A stretch of 63,016 nt of DNA, filler included. It is 6 parts of 6 records of this genome, joined end to end, with 100 filler letters (N's around TTAATTAATTAA, not from the genome) between each part and the next. Parts side by side here need not be neighbours in the genome. Positions count along the whole stretch, not along the records: positions 1 to 24,990 come from SRR2962707_4458; 5 more parts are not named here. One strand, 5' to 3'. The notes under the pieces are model-generated. The model worked only from the letters and a program-made list of their open reading frames with translations. It ran no database searches and had not been told where the DNA came from. Positions 9,568 to 17,864 of this stretch are shown piece by piece. The position numbers and the translations under genes are program-made. Position 1 is the first letter of the stretch; every line of letters starts with the position of its first letter.

Positions 9568-9678
9568 TTCCCCCCTCACACAGCCGGTGCCCGCGGAGTA
9601 CTAAAACTGTATAATCCGCGTACCGAAGCAGTCTCCAAGACTGTCTTGTTTTACCTGAATAAAGGCCGGGCCGGATCC

Positions 9679-10509
9679 ATGTCACCAGAACGCATTGGCG
9701 TAGTCATCACTACCTACAATTCCCCACTATGGCTGAGCAAGGTTCTGACGGGCTATGAAAACCAGAGCCAGCCGGACTTTCGGGTGATCATTGCTGATGA
9801 CGGGTCAACCAACGAGACCCGCGACCTCATCGACCGGTTCCGCGAGCGCGGTATCCTGCAGATCGACCACGTGTGGCACGAGGACGACGGCTTTCGCAAG
9901 TGCCAGATCCTCAACAAGGCCATCCGGGAAACCGACTGCGACTATCTGATCTTCACGGACGGCGACTGCATCCCGGAACCGGACTTCATCGCCACCCATC
10001 AACGGCTGGCCGAACCAGGAGTTTTCCTGTCCGGCGGATACATCAAACTCACCATGCCGGTTTCAGAAGCGATTTCCGACGACGATATCCGCAGCGGTGT
10101 CATCTTTGACCCCCAGTGGCTGGTCAGTAAGGGCCAACCGAAGAACCACAAGCTCTGGAAGCTGTCCAGCTCATCCCTGAAGAAGACATTCCTGAATGCC
10201 ATCACGCCGGCAGCCGCCAGTTGGAATGGCATGAACAGCTCCACCTGGACCAAAGACCTGATTGCCGTTAATGGCTTCAACGAAGACATGCAATACGGTG
10301 GCCTGGACCGCGAACTTGGCGAGCGCCTCTGGAACTTTGGTCACAAATCCCGGCAGATTCGCTACAGCACCGTGTGCCTGCATCTGGACCATGCCCGCGG
10401 TTACTCCAAGCCGGAAATCTGGGCAAAGAACCGGGCTATCCGCAAGGCCGTTAAGGACAACCGCACCTTCTGGGCCGAAAACGGCATTGAGAAGAGCCGC
10501 ACTGCATGA
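9679..10509 (+). CDS. GT2 glycosyltransferase
   Basis: VVITTYN, IADDGS, WHEDDGFRK, FTDGDC, VNGFNE, GGLD. Confidence 0.92.
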   Translation: MSPERIGVVITTYNSPLWLSKVLTGYENQSQPDFRVIIADDGSTNETRDLIDRFRERGILQIDHVWHEDDGFRKCQILNKAIRETDCDYLIFTDGDCIPEPDFIATHQRLAEPGVFLSGGYIKLTMPVSEAISDDDIRSGVIFDPQWLVSKGQPKNHKLWKLSSSSLKKTFLNAITPAAASWNGMNSSTWTKDLIAVNGFNEDMQYGGLDRELGERLWNFGHKSRQIRYSTVCLHLDHARGYSKPEIWAKNRAIRKAVKDNRTFWAENGIEKSRTA

Positions 10510-11687
10510 CCGAGCAAGGAAGCATGAGAACCCTGGTTGTGATCCACAGCCTGAAAATGGGCGGCATGGAACGGGTGGCCGTTAACCTGGCGGATGCCTT
10601 TGCGGACGAGGGCCACGAGAGTCACCTGCTGTCCTGCCGCAATCGCCCCAATGATCTCAGCCCTGCCAATTCTGCCGTTCACCTGCATCACTTCGATCAG
10701 TTCCAGGCGTTGATGAAATCGGTTATCGGTATTCCAGTTTTCCTGTTATCCCGCCTTCTACTGGGTGTACTGTTGCCGAAATCCCACTTTATGTGGGTTG
10801 GCTGGCTAAGCGGGTGGCTGCTGAAGAGACACATTCGCGGCCTGGAAAAGCGCTTCGGGCGTTTCGACCGCATTGTTTTCCGAGGCCTGGGTACCTTCAA
10901 GTATTTCTGGTCGTTCCGGGATGACCGCAATGTGTACGTGCTCGAAAACGTTATTCATTATGATCGCCCTCTGTGGCAGAAAAAGCTGGAATGGCAACTG
11001 GTCTTCAATAACCGACACCTGGCTTGCGTTTCCTCTGGTGTGCTGGACTCCGCTCAGGAGGCGTTCAAAAAGGGGGAGATTGAACCGAAAAGCCAGCGGG
11101 TGATCACCAACCCCTGCCCGGTGGAGCAGATTAACGCGTTGGCGCAAGAGGCCGACCCGGACATTCCAGCGGAGCCCTATATCCTCAATGTCGCTCGGCT
11201 CGTGCCTCAGAAAGGCCACGCCTTGCTGCTGGAAGCCTACAAGCAATCAGGAATCGCTCACAAGCTGGTCATTGTAGGCGAGGGTCCGTTGAAAAACGAT
11301 TTGGAGGAGAAAGCGAAGGCCCTAGGCATCGCTGACCGCGTCTTCTTCGCGGGCAAACGCAGAAACCCCTACCCCTGGATGAAGCAGGCGGAACTGTTTG
11401 TGCTGGCCTCAGAATATGAGGGCCTGGGCATCGTATTGACCGAGGCCCTGGCCTGCAACACGCCGATCATGGCTGTAGAGAGCCGCGGTGGCGTACGGGA
11501 TGTGTTCCGTGGCGAATTGGAGGATTTCCTGACGCCACGCACCGTGGATGGTCTGGCAAGCGGGCTCGCAACCGTGGTTAACCGCCTACCGGTCACCGTG
11601 AAACCGGAGTGGCTTGCGCCTTTCCGCAGCCGGGTGGTGGTGAGCGACTTTCTCGAATCCCCGGAAAAGCAAAGCCAACATGACTGA
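10506..11687 (+). CDS. GT4 glycosyltransferase
   Basis: GGMERV, ARLVPQKG, EGLGIVLTEA. Confidence 0.9.
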   Translation: MTEQGSMRTLVVIHSLKMGGMERVAVNLADAFADEGHESHLLSCRNRPNDLSPANSAVHLHHFDQFQALMKSVIGIPVFLLSRLLLGVLLPKSHFMWVGWLSGWLLKRHIRGLEKRFGRFDRIVFRGLGTFKYFWSFRDDRNVYVLENVIHYDRPLWQKKLEWQLVFNNRHLACVSSGVLDSAQEAFKKGEIEPKSQRVITNPCPVEQINALAQEADPDIPAEPYILNVARLVPQKGHALLLEAYKQSGIAHKLVIVGEGPLKNDLEEKAKALGIADRVFFAGKRRNPYPWMKQAELFVLASEYEGLGIVLTEALACNTPIMAVESRGGVRDVFRGELEDFLTPRTVDGLASGLATVVNRLPVTVKPEWLAPFRSRVVVSDFLESPEKQSQHD

Positions 11688-12612
11688 GCACGCCCAACCT
11701 CTCAATATTCTGGTAGCGGGCATTTATTGGTCCGGTTCCGGTGCTGTAGTGGATTACCTCAAGGGACACCCGGACTGCGTCGTGCCCCGGGGTGAATTTA
11801 CCGACTTCAAACGGAGTGGACGAATCGGCAGCCTTCTGGAGGCGGACTCACCCTTCAAGGCAAAATGGCTTGCCAGGATGATGTGGTTCGAAACCGCCAT
11901 GGGCAAACTGCCTGCAGCACAGCTTAAAAAAGCGCGAGGCGCAGACCAGGCCAAGCTTGCTCCAAAGGAGCAGGTGAGACACAACCAGTTGAAGCTTGAA
12001 TACCTTGGCCGCTATCGGAAACATTTAGCCAAAGGCGGTGCGCCCTCGGATAGCCGGATATGGAACGATTGGATGCACGCCGTCGGCCAGGCGTACGCTG
12101 CTAGGGAAAAGGCCATCGTCTGGAACCAGCCGATCTGGGTCGGCAAACACGAAGGGACCTGGCCCGCTGTCTTTACCCCCTTCAAACTGATCGTGGTTCA
12201 CCGAGATCCAGTGGACCAGTTTGCCGAAGTCGTCCGCCAGGGCAAGATCGGCAAGCGTAAATCCGACCCCGCGTTCAATGATAGCGAGAACGACGACATT
12301 GCCTATGTGCTCAAAGGCATCGCCGCAAAAATGGAAAGCCTGATGGCGCTTCAGGCGCAGTTGGGCGAAAGTTATATGCTTGCAGTGAGCTTTGAACGCT
12401 TCGTGAAAGACCACAAAACGGAAGCCCGGAGAGTCTGTGACTTCCTGGATTTCCCGGAAGCGCAACTGCCGTCAGCGCCGTTCAATCCTTCCTACTCCAT
12501 CCGCAATGTCGGCATCGGAGACACGGACCAAATCCGCGGCATGCTCAAGGATCACCAGCCCCTTGTCGACCGACTATATGACCTGAGAACTCAGTTCGAT
12601 AACGCGCAGTAG
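11680..12612 (+). CDS. Sulfotransferase-fold (P-loop) protein with atypical PAPS-binding motifs
   Basis: N-terminal ILVAGIYWSGSGAVVDYLKGHP (5'PSB-like loop), IVVHRDPVDQFAE (3'PB-like), VSFERFV..H....RRVCDFL typical of the family; overlaps the upstream GT4 by 8 nt. Confidence 0.7.
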   Translation: MTEHAQPLNILVAGIYWSGSGAVVDYLKGHPDCVVPRGEFTDFKRSGRIGSLLEADSPFKAKWLARMMWFETAMGKLPAAQLKKARGADQAKLAPKEQVRHNQLKLEYLGRYRKHLAKGGAPSDSRIWNDWMHAVGQAYAAREKAIVWNQPIWVGKHEGTWPAVFTPFKLIVVHRDPVDQFAEVVRQGKIGKRKSDPAFNDSENDDIAYVLKGIAAKMESLMALQAQLGESYMLAVSFERFVKDHKTEARRVCDFLDFPEAQLPSAPFNPSYSIRNVGIGDTDQIRGMLKDHQPLVDRLYDLRTQFDNAQ

Positions 12613-13373
12613 GATGCCAACTCACCTTTTTCCGCCATCGAGGAATAGGCTTCCAGCTCATCCGCGGTATCCACTTCCAGCCAACCGTTGTCCACCAGGC
12701 AGGCCTTCACCGGCCAGCCGGTGTCAATCAGGTGCTGGATAAAGCTCGTCATGTACATGTTATCGAAGTCCTTGCCATCGTAGGTGGCGCTACGGTCCAG
12801 TCTATCGAAAACATCGAGAAACGCCTGCACCTGATCGCCCCGGATCTTGATCAGCCCCATGTATTGAGCCTGGACCTGGCTGTAATCACTGGGCTTCTTG
12901 CCAAGCTCAGTCACAAAACCGGATTCGTTCATAACGAAGGTTTCCGCGTCATCCAACGGCTCCTCCATTCTTAATTGCCACAGGCGCTTCCACTTACGGT
13001 CCGCAGCCAGACAAACCGGCGCATCGCAGTCCAGAACGATTTTCAGAACCGTAGGCTCATAGACGATATCCCCGTAACTGATCAGCAGATCCTCGCCGGG
13101 CTTCATCTTCTCGCGCGCGCAAAAGAGCGTGCGGACCATGTTGGTGGTTGCGTACTCGGGATTGAGGACGAGATCACCGCCTAGAGTGTCCAGGTCATCC
13201 GACCGATAGCCGCCGATGACGGTAATGCCATTGCTCACTCCGCAAGCTGCCATCGCCGCCATCTGACGATGAAGCAGAGGCTTGCCCGCCAGCGCCACCA
13301 TGCATTTGGGGCGGTCGTTGGTGTAGGGGCGAAGTCGGGTGCCCTGCCCTGCGGCCAGTATCAGTGTTTGCAT
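12591..13373 (-). CDS. CTP:phosphoglutamine cytidylyltransferase-like (Cj1416/LicC family NTP transferase)
   Basis: LILAAGQGTRLRPYTNDRPKCMV, NPEYATTNM, YGDIVY, YMGLIK, WLEVD; ATG at 13373 overlaps the upstream stop. Confidence 0.88.
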   Translation of the reverse strand: MQTLILAAGQGTRLRPYTNDRPKCMVALAGKPLLHRQMAAMAACGVSNGITVIGGYRSDDLDTLGGDLVLNPEYATTNMVRTLFCAREKMKPGEDLLISYGDIVYEPTVLKIVLDCDAPVCLAADRKWKRLWQLRMEEPLDDAETFVMNESGFVTELGKKPSDYSQVQAQYMGLIKIRGDQVQAFLDVFDRLDRSATYDGKDFDNMYMTSFIQHLIDTGWPVKACLVDNGWLEVDTADELEAYSSMAEKGELASYCALSN

Positions 13374-14008
13374 GGGGTACCTCTGAAAATACAGTTGAAA
13401 AGTTGTTTGTCGCGCTCGGTGAACGGCGCCTCTCGCTCCGGGTGCCACATGATGCCAGCCCAAGGCAGGCTACGATGCACATACGCCTCGATATCGCCTT
13501 CCGGGCTCAGCAACTGGGGGATGAGTTCCGCCACCAGACCCTCCGGGGAAATTCCCCAGTTATGGAAACTGTTGACGTCCTGGTAGGGGCGAAACCAGCT
13601 ATTTGTCTGTTCAGTTGGTGTCACCGCGTGTCGCACGGCGGTATGACCGGAGACCGGGGTAAGCTGCCCGCCCAGCCAGACGTTCATCATCTGCAGTCCC
13701 CGACAGACTCCGATAACTGGCCACCCCCGCTCGCGTGCAAGCGAAAGCAGGGTTCGTTCCGTCTCATCTCGCTCTGCCGACGTGTTGATGGCATCAGGCA
13801 GGTGAGTGAGATCATTGCCACCCGACAGGATCAGCCCCTCAATTCCCGTCGATGCCAGCCATTCGTTGAGATTGGACAGCGAGTTGGGAATGGGCACGGG
13901 CATGAACCCCAGTGCCTCAAGAAACCGGAACCATTGCTGATCCAGGCAATCCCGGTGCTCACCATAAGACGCAACCACTTCCACGCGCTGACTGACTCCA
14001 ATGCGCAT
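13361..14008 (-). CDS. Peptidase C26 / class I glutamine amidotransferase, gamma-glutamyl-CDP-amidate hydrolase-like (Cj1417)
   Basis: IGVSQRV..YGEHRDCLDQQW, LSGGND, GVCRGLQ (Cys nucleophile), NSFHNWG, MWHPER (His-Glu). Confidence 0.88.
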   Translation of the reverse strand: MRIGVSQRVEVVASYGEHRDCLDQQWFRFLEALGFMPVPIPNSLSNLNEWLASTGIEGLILSGGNDLTHLPDAINTSAERDETERTLLSLARERGWPVIGVCRGLQMMNVWLGGQLTPVSGHTAVRHAVTPTEQTNSWFRPYQDVNSFHNWGISPEGLVAELIPQLLSPEGDIEAYVHRSLPWAGIMWHPEREAPFTERDKQLFNCIFRGTPCKH

Positions 14009-14009
14009 C

Positions 14010-17000
14010 TTAACGGATGACCTCAATTCGCTTGTTGACGGGGTCCAGTTCCAACACGGTTGCCCTCGCCAATGCCTCGTACTTCCCCTCGCCTACGCCA
14101 ATGGCGGCAGGTAGTCCAAACTCTGCGGCCCGTATGGCCATGTGGGAATTGGCACCGCCATACATGGTAATCAACCCGGCAATGCCATGGCCAAACAGCC
14201 AGTCATAACCGGGGTCGGCCTGGGGAATCATGGCAATTTTGCCGGACAGGTTACTCCGCTCGTCAGTGGCTCGTTTTTGCAGATCGACGCACTCGGCGGA
14301 GATCTTCCCGGCACCCACGAAATTCGCGTGGCTATCAGTGTACAGGAAGGCGTAAAAGTCACTTTCTGACAGCAGCAAGGGGGGTAATTCAACCATAGCC
14401 GCTGCCCGGCTGGCCTCATAACCTTCGGTAGCCTGGTCTGCCAGCCAGGAGGCCTCATCGGCCACCGCCACGGTTCCTGACCTCAACGCGGACAGGGCTT
14501 CAACGGAAATACACGCCATCTGCTCCCGCGTTACCCCATGACGCTCTCCGTAACCCGCCAGGCAATTCAGGGCCAGAGAAAGATGCCGGGTAAACACAAA
14601 CTTGGCGTACTCACGGCCCTCGATGGCATTACGCATAAAACGCTCAAGCTGCTCAATGTCACCGGGCAAACCGGCATCTGAAACCGCCTGCGCGAACGTC
14701 TGCCTCTCATTTTCCCACGCGTCCAGAGCGATATGGGAACCCGAGTCGGCGTGCAACTCCGACGCTGAACGCTCAATCACCGGAACCAGGAAATGCTCAG
14801 GGTTATCGCCATAACAGGGCGAGGTTATGTCGTAGGTACCTGGCCGCAAGTGCCGATATTGTTGGGTGAAGGCGGCCATGGACAATTCTTGACGAGCCAC
14901 CTTCGCAGCATCGTCGGTAAACCGGTGGGAAACCGTGCGGATAGAGTTGAGGAACGCATCCATGGCGCCCTGGGACAACACACCTTTTTCGACGGCCGAC
15001 CGAAGCAATGTGATCGCAACAAAGGCACTGCGGGCAAGATGGGCAAACGCCAGGGTTCCGTATCGCCGACACTCTTCAAGCAGCGACAGTGCATCGTCCA
15101 GACTGGCGGCATCAGTGTTCCGGAAACACGCCAGCCGCTCTTCGAAGCGGTCAATTACTTGCAGATCCGCGTCGGTTCGAGCGATGGCGCAGGCAGTGAT
15201 GGTTTTCAATCCCACGCCAAGCCGATCTGCCTCATCGGCATTAAAACCACCCTCGTGGATCAAACGTTCCCGCCAGCGCTCAAAATCCAGCGCGTAGCAG
15301 GTAGGCACCACATCAAACTCAACTTTGTCGTGTAGATGCGGGTGGCGACGTAACCACTCCATGTAGAAGTCCACCAGCCGCCCTGCCAAGCCGTCATCCA
15401 GGGATTGCGGAATGAAAGAGTTGAAGCTGGCGCGAATATCCACGTAAGGGTGCCCGGCAAACATCCTGAGCAACGGCTGGGGGCGAACGTCCCGATAACC
15501 GTATTCCGCTCTCTGGGCTGCCCACACGTCGTCCATGATCAGATAGCGATACAGGCTGGATGCCAGTCGTCCCGGCCGGGTGCCGATGATTTCAGCCGGG
15601 TTCCAGTCCGGCATCACACCGAAACAGGCACGCTTGCCGACAACAAATGGCGCTGGAGCCTGCCACTGCCGAAATCGATCCACGGCGTTCGTCAGCAAGC
15701 TCTCTGCCGCATCACTCTGAGTGAGCTCGTGCTGAACCGCAATCGGGCGCACCTGAAGGATATGGATCAGGCCGCCCTCAGTGATAGCGAATTCCATATC
15801 GAGAGAATCGAAATCCAACAGGTCCTCGACTTCCCTCAGCGCGGGCATCAGTCCCGCCAGGTTCTCCGGCACCCGTACCAGCTTCTCCGGAGCATCCCGA
15901 TGAACAAAGAGGGTTTTGTGATCCCGGCTGGCACCGCTGGTGATGGACTCGGTGCTATTCGTAGTATCGTCGTAATTCACGACATAATACGGAGCCCCCG
16001 AGGACAGGGTTTTGGTGAACGCCACACCACTGGCAATCACCTGTTCCAGCATCGGCTGCACCAGAACCTGGTTGTCGGGGTGGCCATCGGGATAGGAGGC
16101 AATGACCTTCTCAATGGCGGCTCTAAGCTCGCCTTCACTCTGGCGACTGACATTGAGAACACTGGTGTAAGCGCCAGCGTTGGATACCCCGAACCCGTCC
16201 TCTGACAAGGCACTGCTGCGGACAACCAGTTTTTCCGTTTCCGATAGGCGCGCCCCGATCCGGGCGAGTACTTCTGTGTCCAAGTCCTGCCATTCGGCAA
16301 CCGTAAAGCTGACCTGGTCTTCAATACGACTTCTCGTAACCACGCCCTGCAAACGATGGAGCGTCTGCGCCTTGGTGCCCAGGATAAACCGACTGAGATC
16401 GTTCGGCTCGTTCAGTTCTGCCCATCCACCGGCCACATCCACCGCAGCCACACTGAACCCACGAACCCGCAACAGCTCAAGAAGCTGGGTGAGGCTGCCC
16501 TTGCGTATGGCTTCCGGAAAATCCGACTGCCCCGCCAGAAAACCCGCAACCTTGGGCTGCAGCCGAACCAGACCAACGAATTCGGCATCGGCCAGTTCGG
16601 GAAGGATATCCCGCCCCAAACGGGTGATCCGGCCGCCGTGCACGTTCACTTTTTCACATCGCTGTAAATCCTCTTCAGAGCGCCCCTCAAACCGGTGACG
16701 CCAATTGCTGTCCACCAAAACGGCTATATCCGCCTCACTGGAGGATAAAGATTGCACCGCGGAATCCCGAAACAGCACGTCGGAATAGGACACGTAGTGA
16801 ACGACGCGATCATTCAGTGGCGCTTCCAGCAACGACGCCGCCGCACCGGTGGATTGCCAATGAGGGTTCACCGAATAGTGAAGCTCGGGATAACGCTCGG
16901 CAATTTCATCCAGCTGGTATCCGCCCACGAAATGAACGTCGGGCTCTACTGCGCGCATGGAGTGCAATACCCAGTCCAGTACCCGCCTGCGACCGGTTGT

Positions 17001-17093
17001 GCCCCGGAGCACACTATGCTGTTCGCCGCTGAACGGCTTGCCAGCGCCGAGGATGATGAGGCGTGTCTGGTGTGCTCGCTCCGTTGTTCCCAT
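14010..17093 (-). CDS. L-glutamine kinase-like PEP-utilizing enzyme (Cj1418 family) with an N-terminal nucleotidyltransferase-like domain
   Basis: TKAQTL, VRSSALSED..SNAGAY ATP-grasp, LQVRPI, GVMPDWNPAEIIG, ADPGYDWLF, GGANSHMAIRAAE phospho-His domain. First ~238 aa resemble an NTP transferase (IILGAG, YSDVLF, AEFVGL, WAELN). Confidence 0.9.
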   Translation of the reverse strand: MGTTERAHQTRLIILGAGKPFSGEQHSVLRGTTGRRRVLDWVLHSMRAVEPDVHFVGGYQLDEIAERYPELHYSVNPHWQSTGAAASLLEAPLNDRVVHYVSYSDVLFRDSAVQSLSSSEADIAVLVDSNWRHRFEGRSEEDLQRCEKVNVHGGRITRLGRDILPELADAEFVGLVRLQPKVAGFLAGQSDFPEAIRKGSLTQLLELLRVRGFSVAAVDVAGGWAELNEPNDLSRFILGTKAQTLHRLQGVVTRSRIEDQVSFTVAEWQDLDTEVLARIGARLSETEKLVVRSSALSEDGFGVSNAGAYTSVLNVSRQSEGELRAAIEKVIASYPDGHPDNQVLVQPMLEQVIASGVAFTKTLSSGAPYYVVNYDDTTNSTESITSGASRDHKTLFVHRDAPEKLVRVPENLAGLMPALREVEDLLDFDSLDMEFAITEGGLIHILQVRPIAVQHELTQSDAAESLLTNAVDRFRQWQAPAPFVVGKRACFGVMPDWNPAEIIGTRPGRLASSLYRYLIMDDVWAAQRAEYGYRDVRPQPLLRMFAGHPYVDIRASFNSFIPQSLDDGLAGRLVDFYMEWLRRHPHLHDKVEFDVVPTCYALDFERWRERLIHEGGFNADEADRLGVGLKTITACAIARTDADLQVIDRFEERLACFRNTDAASLDDALSLLEECRRYGTLAFAHLARSAFVAITLLRSAVEKGVLSQGAMDAFLNSIRTVSHRFTDDAAKVARQELSMAAFTQQYRHLRPGTYDITSPCYGDNPEHFLVPVIERSASELHADSGSHIALDAWENERQTFAQAVSDAGLPGDIEQLERFMRNAIEGREYAKFVFTRHLSLALNCLAGYGERHGVTREQMACISVEALSALRSGTVAVADEASWLADQATEGYEASRAAAMVELPPLLLSESDFYAFLYTDSHANFVGAGKISAECVDLQKRATDERSNLSGKIAMIPQADPGYDWLFGHGIAGLITMYGGANSHMAIRAAEFGLPAAIGVGEGKYEALARATVLELDPVNKRIEVIR

Positions 17094-17198: not shown

Positions 17199-17864
17199 AT
17201 GGGTATTACCGAAAAATCCAGATTCGAGCAGCTACGAAGGAACTGGAACAGCCGCCTCCGAGCGTGGCAAACGGATCGACAGAACAAGGCATTATATGGG
17301 GAAGACGCGCCGAGGTTTGCCGAACAACTGTGGGTGCCGATTTCCGAGCTTGAATTTGCCGTCAAGGCGGGAAGCTCAAAACAAAGCGGACAAATCATCC
17401 GTTCCTGGCCCACCGGGGGGCTGGGGCGCGTCGATCAAACCGTCGCCATAAAGGCGTGTGTAGCCCACTGGCGGGGCGGGTTGTCGTGGGAAGAAACGGG
17501 CATTTACGACGCAATGATGGATCAGATACGGAAGCACGGAAAGGTAGACCGCCTCAGGACACTTGAAGACGTTAAACTCCGGTACCGGCAGCTTGATGCC
17601 CTATACGAAAGCGTGCGACAAGCAGGGCGCCTGAGCCCCAGAGATGAGCTGATCCCTGGGAACTTCCGGGAAGAGGGAGGGATACTCGTCAACATTGGTC
17701 CAGACGGCAAGCCCTACTTCGGCAGGAAAGGCAATCATCGTTTAGCGATGGCGATCGCGGCAGGCATTGACCGCATTCCTGCGCAGCTTGGGGTTGTTCA
17801 TATCGAGGGTCTACCTGCACTTCCTGATTATCGAAATGCGCCACCGAATGAAACAGCCAACTAA
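17199..17864 (+). CDS. Hypothetical protein with ParB/Srx-like C-terminal motif
   Basis: ILVNIGPDG...KGNHRLAMA..AGI..IPA resembles the (D)GxHR core of the ParB/sulfiredoxin fold; divergent from the phosphoramidate operon. Confidence 0.65.
   Translation: MGITEKSRFEQLRRNWNSRLRAWQTDRQNKALYGEDAPRFAEQLWVPISELEFAVKAGSSKQSGQIIRSWPTGGLGRVDQTVAIKACVAHWRGGLSWEETGIYDAMMDQIRKHGKVDRLRTLEDVKLRYRQLDALYESVRQAGRLSPRDELIPGNFREEGGILVNIGPDGKPYFGRKGNHRLAMAIAAGIDRIPAQLGVVHIEGLPALPDYRNAPPNETAN

Follow-up and report, generated by a model that had tools for sequence, protein, structure and literature searches.

A sulfotransferase-fold protein with altered PAPS-contact residues as a candidate phosphoramidate transferase of Marinobacter lipopolysaccharide

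The window analysed here is the whole stretch of 63,016 nucleotides (nt), of which positions 1 to 24,990 come from SRR2962707_4458, and its gene content in profile searches identifies it as a Marinobacter lipopolysaccharide (LPS)-core locus. It carries waaA, two lpxL-type acyltransferase genes, an ELM1-like gene and an O-antigen-ligase-like gene, together with glycosyltransferases of families GT4, GT2, GT9 and GT25 and Kdo/WaaP-type kinases. This study concerns P0001, a sulfotransferase-fold protein of 310 amino acids (aa) encoded at 11680-12612 on the plus strand. Its gene is the last of a run, all on the plus strand, that begins with a GT2 gene (9646-10509; Pfam Glycos_transf_2, E 5e-18) and continues with a GT4 gene (10506-11687; Pfam Glycos_transf_1, E 3e-29). 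The GT2 and GT4 genes overlap by 4 nt and the GT4 and P0001 genes by 8 nt, while the 3' end of the P0001 gene shares 22 nt (12591-12612) with a convergent nucleotidyltransferase open reading frame (ORF). The GT2 enzyme probably builds the acceptor sugar for P0001. Homologues of P0001 are nearly all from Marinobacter, the closest named one being that of M. algicola DG893 (94% identity).

The convergent genes, all on the minus strand, encode relatives of Cj1416, Cj1417 and Cj1418 of Campylobacter jejuni, as judged from Pfam and NCBIfam matches. Nearest to P0001 lies the Cj1416-like nucleotidyltransferase, a predicted CTP:phosphoglutamine cytidylyltransferase (12591-13463; NTP_transf_3, E 2e-12); because homology in its relatives begins at residue 31 of the listed ORF, the real start is probably near that residue. 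It is followed by a Cj1417-like class-I glutamine amidotransferase, a predicted gamma-glutamyl-CDP-amidate hydrolase (13361-14026; Pfam Peptidase_C26, E 3e-22), whose best NCBIfam match is NF045546, 'gamma-glutamyl-CDP-amidate hydrolase', at 120.5 bits, under the cut-off of 250. The third protein, P0002 (1027 aa), is made of two parts. Its C-terminal ~790 aa (14010-16385) are a Cj1418-type L-glutamine kinase, with Pfam PPDK_N and PEP-utilizers domains and an NF004508 match of 888.5 bits (cut-off 501) over residues 232-1026. Its N-terminal ~236 aa (16386-17093) form a second nucleotidyltransferase-like domain that matched nothing in a Pfam search and is paralogous to the Cj1416-like protein, which it resembles at a tblastn E of 6e-9.

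Several kinds of gene were looked for and not found. A tblastn search of the window gave no Cj1415-like 3'-kinase, and a sequence search gave no window homologue of the methyltransferase that is found in nine other cassettes (see below). A sequence-only reading of this DNA had stated that the locus holds no cysC or cysDN genes; for cysC and cysN this can now be extended to the whole window, in which tblastn found no homologue of adenosine 5'-phosphosulfate (APS) kinase or of CysN, but cysD was not searched for. Furthermore, no other transferase candidate is evident, because tblastn at 1e-4 found no TagF-like or LicD-like gene in the window or in the Marinobacter loci.

P0001 is a sulfotransferase by fold. 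Its only Pfam match at E ≤0.01 is Sulfotransfer_3 (PF13469; E 1.8e-11, 45.2 bits, cut-off 27), so it matches none of PF04464, PF04991 and PF01583, and no NCBIfam model matches it. AlphaFold, supplied with an alignment of 16 sequences, gave a model with a pLDDT of 93 and a pTM of 0.90. When this model was compared with known structures by Foldseek and VIA-align, the top matches were all sulfotransferases (50 of 50 among the matches listed, Z 17.4-12.6), led by TPST1/2 (Z 17.4, rmsd 3.8-4.0 over 237-240 residues) and including the sulfotransferase domains of CurM and olefin synthase (Z 16.5-16.8) and the heparan sulfate 3-O-sulfotransferases (3-OSTs; Z ~13). A PDB sequence search found no solved structure within the P0001 family, the best match being 3-OST-3 (E 0.0012), and in the ESM Atlas P0001 falls among generic 'sulfotransferase' clusters only. 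No signal peptide or membrane segment is evident in the model, which fits action of the predicted protein on the cytoplasmic face. Family members of 412-584 aa carry tetratricopeptide repeats (TPR) only, and no fusions were found among proteins of 602-2000 aa searched with a diverse family alignment at 1e-5, which is weak evidence.

The residues that would contact the donor depart from the sulfotransferase pattern. In canonical sulfotransferases that use 3'-phosphoadenosine 5'-phosphosulfate (PAPS), the 5'-phosphosulfate-binding (5'-PSB) loop reads (R/K)SGT(T/S), and the Ser of an R-x7-S motif at the 3'-phosphate-binding (3'-PB) site binds the 3'-phosphate of PAPS. A profile alignment to 3-OST-3 places GIYWSGSGA (residues 14-22; 11719-11745, plus strand) over GVKKGGTRA, with Trp17 on the second Lys, and RDPVDQFAE (residues 175-183; 12202-12228, plus strand) over RDPVTRAIS, so that Arg175 coincides with the 3'-PB Arg and Glu183 with the 3'-PB Ser, although the alignment is weak (that same whole-sequence E of 0.0012, with only 4.9 bits for the loop segment). 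P0001 therefore has Trp17 where Lys or Arg is canonical and Glu183 where Ser is canonical, and retains the 3'-PB Arg. The sequence-only reading had already described this ORF with its YWSGSGA loop, the Glu at the Ser position of RDPVDQFAE, the closing position in the GT2-GT4 run and the 22-nt overlap with the cytidylyltransferase, and translation and alignment agree with it on each point; the sulfotransferase-like fold, for which it had set structure prediction and Foldseek as the check, is likewise upheld. As a separate matter, the idea that P0001 is a kinase substituting for Cj1415 was rejected, since the YWSGSGA loop lacks the Walker-A Lys (GxxxxGK[ST]) and there is no PF01583 match.

These changes are not peculiar to P0001. 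A family profile search of 1.84 billion representatives gave 1276 matches at E ≤0.001, 304 at 1e-10 and 66 at 1e-30. Among 201 family sequences, position 17 is aromatic in 157 (W 100, Y 37, F 20) and basic in few (R 9, K 3), and position 183 is acidic in 172 (E 112, D 60), the others including Q (12), N (8) and S (2). None of the 199 sequences that could be aligned at position 175 lacks the Arg. The 148 non-Marinobacter representatives also conserve Glu39 (116/139), Asp179 (145/147), Gln180 (131/147), Glu239 (131/140), Ser273 and Asn276, and the 3'-PB motif of the family thus has an additional invariant Asp-Gln pair (RDPxDQ). Glu39 aligns with the Glu that serves as catalytic base in 3-OSTs. 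Because both deviations recur across the family sequences, Trp17 and Glu183 are the signature of a distinct conserved family and not a matter of chance. A third Marinobacter subclade (P0049-P0053; L038), at 46-48% identity, has the loop Arg back (GIYRSGSSA) and an Asp at the Ser position. With the diverse family alignment at 1e-10, one of 400 gammaproteobacterial genomes was matched, namely the centre genome of that survey.

Within Marinobacter, the P0001 gene and the convergent 1416/1417/1418-like cassette occur together in 14 of 16 loci from species-representative genomes and in eight Marinobacter-type metagenome loci (the remaining ones end too early or equal L007), which supplies the linkage of homologues to phosphoramidate genes that the sequence-only reading required. 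In the 4.4 Mb of M. algicola only one gene, the P0001 homologue, matches Sulfotransfer_3, and it adjoins that genome's sole NF004508 gene. In L007 (M. excellens HL-55), and in the identical L035, the cassette is absent, and the P0001 homologue (10001-10930) is still an open ORF but is conserved only to residue 263, its last 46-47 residues being unrelated, so that it lacks the invariant C-terminal SxxNxGIG region. As the cassette is missing and the end of the gene replaced, both were removed together. In L016, from a Marinobacter metagenome-assembled genome (MAG), identity to the window is 91% for lpxL2, 91% for the GT2 gene and 86% for the GT4 gene and falls to 52% for the P0001 homologue, which places a recombination breakpoint between the GT4 and sulfotransferase-like genes. 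Here the phosphoramidate cassette is absent, and the P0001 homologue is followed on the same strand by a fusion of CTP_transf_like and phosphoenolpyruvate (PEP) mutase domains and a thiamine-pyrophosphate enzyme, by sequence a Fom1/PntC-type start of a phosphonate pathway. The sulfotransferase-like gene thus belongs to the donor module, and not to the GT operon with which it is transcribed. The Marinobacter subclades linked to phosphoramidate and to phosphonate come out as sisters in a maximum-likelihood tree.

On the far side of the cassette lies orf221 (17199-17864, plus strand; 221 aa), which has no Pfam or NCBIfam match. In Marinobacter it is conserved next to the cassette (37-58% identity), in varying orientation, and it stays where the cassette has been lost. 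It was considered as the transferase and found less likely, since it belongs to no family and persists in L007 after cassette loss.

More distant relatives (23-34% identity to P0001) came from genomes and metagenomes, and with L016 added their loci number ten: L016, L017, L018/L041, L019/L039/L040, L020, L021, L042, L043, L044 and L045; the L033 and L038 stretches are too short and stand outside this count. A PF01467 cytidylyltransferase, a PEP mutase or both lie within a few genes at seven of the ten (L016, L017, L020, L042, L043, L044 and L045), and these seven span three deep clades of the family tree. In L042 the order is relative, cytidylyltransferase (CT)-PEP mutase, Ppd and iron-containing alcohol dehydrogenase (Fe-ADH); in L045 it is GT2, CT-PEP mutase, Ppd, relative and Fe-ADH, the relative thus standing between decarboxylase and dehydrogenase; and in L020 (Nitriliruptoraceae) CT-PEP mutase and Ppd precede a TPR-fused relative. 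L017 (Methanomassiliicoccaceae) has a divergently adjacent PF01467 cytidylyltransferase of 161 aa, and in L043 and L044 a PF01467 cytidylyltransferase and LicD-like genes adjoin the relative. The Methanomassiliicoccaceae-type loci L019, L039 and L040, not counted as positive, have a 37-residue cytidylyltransferase remnant and a shorter sulfotransferase-like ORF (267 aa, against 325 aa in L017), and the two genes may have decayed jointly. Outside Marinobacter, therefore, relatives of the Glu/Asp type adjoin cytidylyltransferase and phosphonate genes, not Cj1416-18, and for this reason the family as a whole seems to use donors of the cytidine-diphospho type with no 3'-phosphate.

The reciprocal comparison started from the glutamine kinase. 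Of the genomes sampled, 8 of 400 from Gammaproteobacteria and 14 of 401 from Pseudomonadota carry an NF004508 gene, M. algicola being counted in both, and 19 non-Marinobacter loci were compared, for which the counts of TagF-like and sulfotransferase-fold neighbours are lower bounds. In 17 of the 19 the kinase is short (~770-900 aa), and 11 of these have an APS-kinase-like gene in the stretch and a 12th has one on an adjoining contig. The cassette APS-kinase-like proteins are 26-36% identical to the canonical M. algicola APS kinase and score 90-115 bits against PF01583, compared with 220-235 bits for canonical CysC; we take these divergent copies to be putative Cj1415 equivalents. In the two other loci the kinase is long (L057, 8729-11761; L095, 8841-11888) and carries at its N-terminus the nucleotidyltransferase-like domain that the window kinase has. 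Neither locus has an APS-kinase-like gene in the vicinity, and each cassette adjoins a TagF-like PF04464 gene. L056, with the short form, also has a TagF-like gene, so that such neighbours occur in at least 3 of the 19 loci. The N-terminal domain is present on the glutamine kinase only in the three lineages whose cassettes have no APS-kinase-like gene close by, namely Marinobacter, G272 and G541.

A sulfotransferase-fold gene is present in at least 9 of these 19 loci (L055, L084 with three, L085, L088 with two, L089, L091, L092, L093 and L094). As G524 has one of its two sulfotransferase-fold genes next to the cassette, G451 one of three and G408 two of three, this adjacency in genomes with few such genes is far from random. 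Most of the cassette-linked proteins are fused to TPRs; the Glu-type profile does not match them, and in the tree they are the outgroup. The R-x7-S motif is kept in all 12 that were read, and the GRSG[ST] loop in 10 of the 12. A Cj1415-like kinase is present in the locus or genome of seven of the eight genomes that carry this R-x7-S type, the eighth (G408) having only a canonical APS kinase, as does M. algicola, which has the Glu form. Thus, Ser or Glu at this position appears to covary with the presence of a Cj1415-like kinase, which is the covariation predicted; its Glu side consists of one phosphoramidate lineage and the phosphonate-linked relatives, whose CMP donors lack a 3'-phosphate. 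The earlier proposal that the Ser-to-Glu change suits a donor without 3'-phosphate has therefore gained comparative support. The companion check, whether Glu/Asp homologues accompany Cj1416-18 but not Cj1415, comes out so in Marinobacter; elsewhere, cytidylyltransferase and phosphonate genes are the neighbours instead. Transfer of phosphoramidate from CDP-NH2 is still favoured for P0001, within a reading now widened to cytidine-diphospho-type donors that lack the 3'-phosphate.

Other features of these cassettes may be recorded here. In G592, G535, G472 and G280 the cassette-linked genes score ~25-53 bits against PF13469, far lower than the other TPR-sulfotransferases of the same genomes (120-176 bits), and so they look like a separate divergent subgroup. 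A SAM-methyltransferase-like gene (~250 aa) is present in 9 of the 19 cassettes (L055, L083, L085, L086, L087, L088, L090, L091 and L096), which suggests that the product may be methylated at those loci and unmethylated in the window. A Formyl_trans_N-like gene, sometimes fused to a small ORF, recurs in L056 (8030-8764), L057 (6905-7753), L058 (5437-6774), L093 (7781-8521) and L095 (5226-6092), and one lies near the archaeal P0001 relative in L017 (15591-16397); the window has none.

The supply of PAPS is a related question. The sole APS kinase gene of M. algicola (L022, G001 contig C87) lies between Polysacc_synt_2 and CitMHS/TrkA_C transporter genes and not beside cysDN, and this suggests that PAPS is made for polysaccharide in that organism. 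The M. excellens HL-55 genome has no real APS kinase (21 bits only). Among genomes with intact Glu-type genes, G003 has no APS kinase and G005 a marginal match of 20.5 bits, both assemblies being incomplete.

With moderate confidence, we propose that P0001 is a CMP-releasing transferase that moves phosphoramidate from CDP-amidate onto the LPS core. By homology to C. jejuni, the Cj1418-like kinase would phosphorylate the amide of L-glutamine, the Cj1416-like nucleotidyltransferase would make CDP-L-glutamine, and the Cj1417-like amidohydrolase would free cytidine 5'-diphosphoramidate. As there is neither a Cj1415-like 3'-kinase nor a methyltransferase, the donor would be CDP-amidate that bears no 3'-phosphate, and the sugar phosphoramidate formed would be unmethylated. 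Judged by its fold, its motifs and its gene linkage, P0001 would bind CDP-amidate where sulfotransferases bind PAPS; the terminal P(O)(O-)NH2 would then pass in line to a hydroxyl on the core sugar that the co-transcribed GT2 and GT4 enzymes make. CMP would leave as PAP does in sulfotransfer, and the geometry is alike in both reactions, X being transferred from nucleoside-5'-P-O-X. At the position of the Ser that touches the 3'-phosphate in sulfotransferases, Glu183 would look towards the free hydroxyls of the ribose, and Glu39 is the candidate catalytic base. P0001 would then be the last enzyme of a kinase-less phosphoramidate pathway decorating the Marinobacter LPS core, and the wider Glu/Asp family may do likewise with other cytidine-linked donors, such as CMP-phosphonates.

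Several observations weigh against this assignment. P0001 scores above the Pfam cut-off for sulfotransferases and retains the Arg of the 3'-PB site; no Glu-type gene was found beside any of the 19 non-Marinobacter cassettes; and conserved gene order among members of a single genus does not count as independent evidence. If P0001 were instead an ordinary PAPS-dependent enzyme that sulfates the core of the LPS, and that adjoins the cassette because both serve the same glycan, the above-threshold Sulfotransfer_3 match, the fold and the invariant Arg175 would all fit. PAPS may moreover be available to it, since the closest sequenced relative, M. algicola, encodes a canonical APS kinase (235 bits) adjacent to a Polysacc_synt_2 gene. 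In the same direction, the relative in L018/L041 (a gammaproteobacterial MAG) has another sulfotransferase gene on either side and a CysNC-type gene 8 kb away, and no cytidylyltransferase was seen at L018 or at L021. We nevertheless regard a sulfotransferase role as unlikely. An aromatic residue replaces the basic residue of the 5'-PSB loop, and an acid that should repel a 3'-phosphate replaces the 3'-PB Ser, in the large majority of the family (157 and 172 of 201 sequences, as above); the P0001 gene has been exchanged along with the donor cassette and not with its operon partners; relatives sit inside phosphonate operons; and G003 and G005 carry the family without a real APS kinase.

It is also conceivable, if quite unlikely in our estimate, that P0001 binds a cytidine-linked intermediate in some role other than final transfer, whether by transfer from CDP-L-glutamine, by proofreading or hydrolysis of the donor, as a scaffold for another transferase, or as an inactive relic. 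Gene linkage points to a shared function and not to a step, and the pathway as proposed gives no part to the additional nucleotidyltransferase-like domain of the kinase. Both other long-kinase cassettes (L057 and L095) use TagF-like genes instead, and the LicD-like proteins that coexist with relatives in L043, L044 and L045, members of an established group of phosphotransferases with CDP donors, could be the transferases there. With tblastn at 1e-4, however, neither kind of gene was found in the window or the Marinobacter loci, and orf221, at the cassette's far end, is still there in L007 after the cassette has gone. Furthermore, the loop, Glu39, Arg175, Asp179, Gln180 and Glu239 are strongly conserved across the family, as in a catalytic protein, and a kinase role is unlikely for a loop without the Walker-A Lys. 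Transfer of phosphoramidate from CDP-amidate remains the reading that we favour for P0001.

A broader proposal can be put forward more tentatively: that evolution has turned the sulfotransferase fold, probably on more than one occasion, to the transfer of phosphorus groups instead of sulfate. The Glu/Asp family (1276 clusters) would then be the missing CMP-releasing transferases onto glycans, and the groups moved would be phosphoramidate, 2-aminoethyl- and 2-hydroxyethyl-phosphonate and perhaps other CDP-linked head groups. A second set, with PAPS motifs, would use the PAPS look-alike 3'-phospho-CDP-amidate, and the residue at the 3'-PB Ser position would report whether the donor has a 3'-phosphate. 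The enzymes that attach phosphoramidate or phosphonate to cell-surface glycans are largely unknown, and the P0001 family, if it is the transferase, offers a soluble and easily expressed candidate for both chemistries. It would also be a case of a sulfuryl-transfer scaffold re-used for phosphoryl-type transfer, in which a single residue, Ser or else Glu/Asp, marks the type of nucleotide donor. Finally, unmethylated phosphoramidate would be predicted on Marinobacter LPS, akin to the phosphoramide on mannose of the Xanthomonas campestris core, as described in the available text of PMC8042644.

The closest known system is the O-methyl phosphoramidate (MeOPN) of the C. jejuni capsule. The accessible portions of PMC11800397 describe Cj1415-Cj1418 as making 'CDP-phosphoramidate 3'-phosphate', which probably donates the phosphoramidate of the capsule, and there and in the corresponding text of PMC3907429 the role of Cj1421/Cj1422 as MeOPN transferases is assigned by knock-outs; the sections available of PMC3546167, PMC8949473 and PMC3907429 give no fold family for these two proteins. 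The window shares relatives of Cj1416, Cj1417 and Cj1418, and the role proposed for P0001 is that of Cj1421/Cj1422, but the window lacks a Cj1415-like kinase and a methyltransferase, its glutamine kinase has an extra N-terminal domain, and the proposed target is the LPS core, whereas that of C. jejuni is the capsule. In phosphonyl tailoring of the PntC/Fom1 type, Rice et al. (2019), in the available text of PMC6697681, describe activation of 2-aminoethylphosphonate and 2-hydroxyethylphosphonate (HEP) with CMP, with PF01467 domains fused to PEP mutase making CMP-HEP (Fom1); later transfer steps are given there as unknown, with LicD-like enzymes named as candidates, and the word 'sulfotransferase' is absent from that main text. 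P0001 relatives adjoin Fom1-type CT-PEP mutase, Ppd and Fe-ADH genes, and P0001 itself is not LicD-like. Our literature search, which did not cover supplementary files, found nothing linking sulfotransferase-like proteins with phosphonate or phosphoramidate transfer.

The TagF-like (PF04464) CDP-glycerol glycerophosphotransferases release CMP from a CDP-linked donor, as is proposed for P0001, and their genes fill the slot of P0001 at L056, L057 and L095, including both other kinase-less cassettes. Their fold, however, is unrelated to that of P0001, which has no PF04464 match, and the window has no such gene. With the PAPS sulfotransferases (PF13469/PF00685), P0001 shares the fold, the 3'-PB Arg and a Glu at the 3-OST base position. 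It differs from them in the aromatic residue of the 5'-PSB loop, the Glu/Asp at the 3'-PB Ser and the RDPxDQ motif, and in a family context of genes for cytidine-linked phosphorus donors, not sulfate activation. The sulfotransferase-fold proteins beside kinase-containing cassettes share both the fold family and the donor pathway with P0001, yet they keep GRSG[ST] and R-x7-S. What is new in comparison with all of these systems is the Glu/Asp-type family itself, its association with donors free of a 3'-phosphate, the swap of cassettes and the covariation of Ser and Glu.

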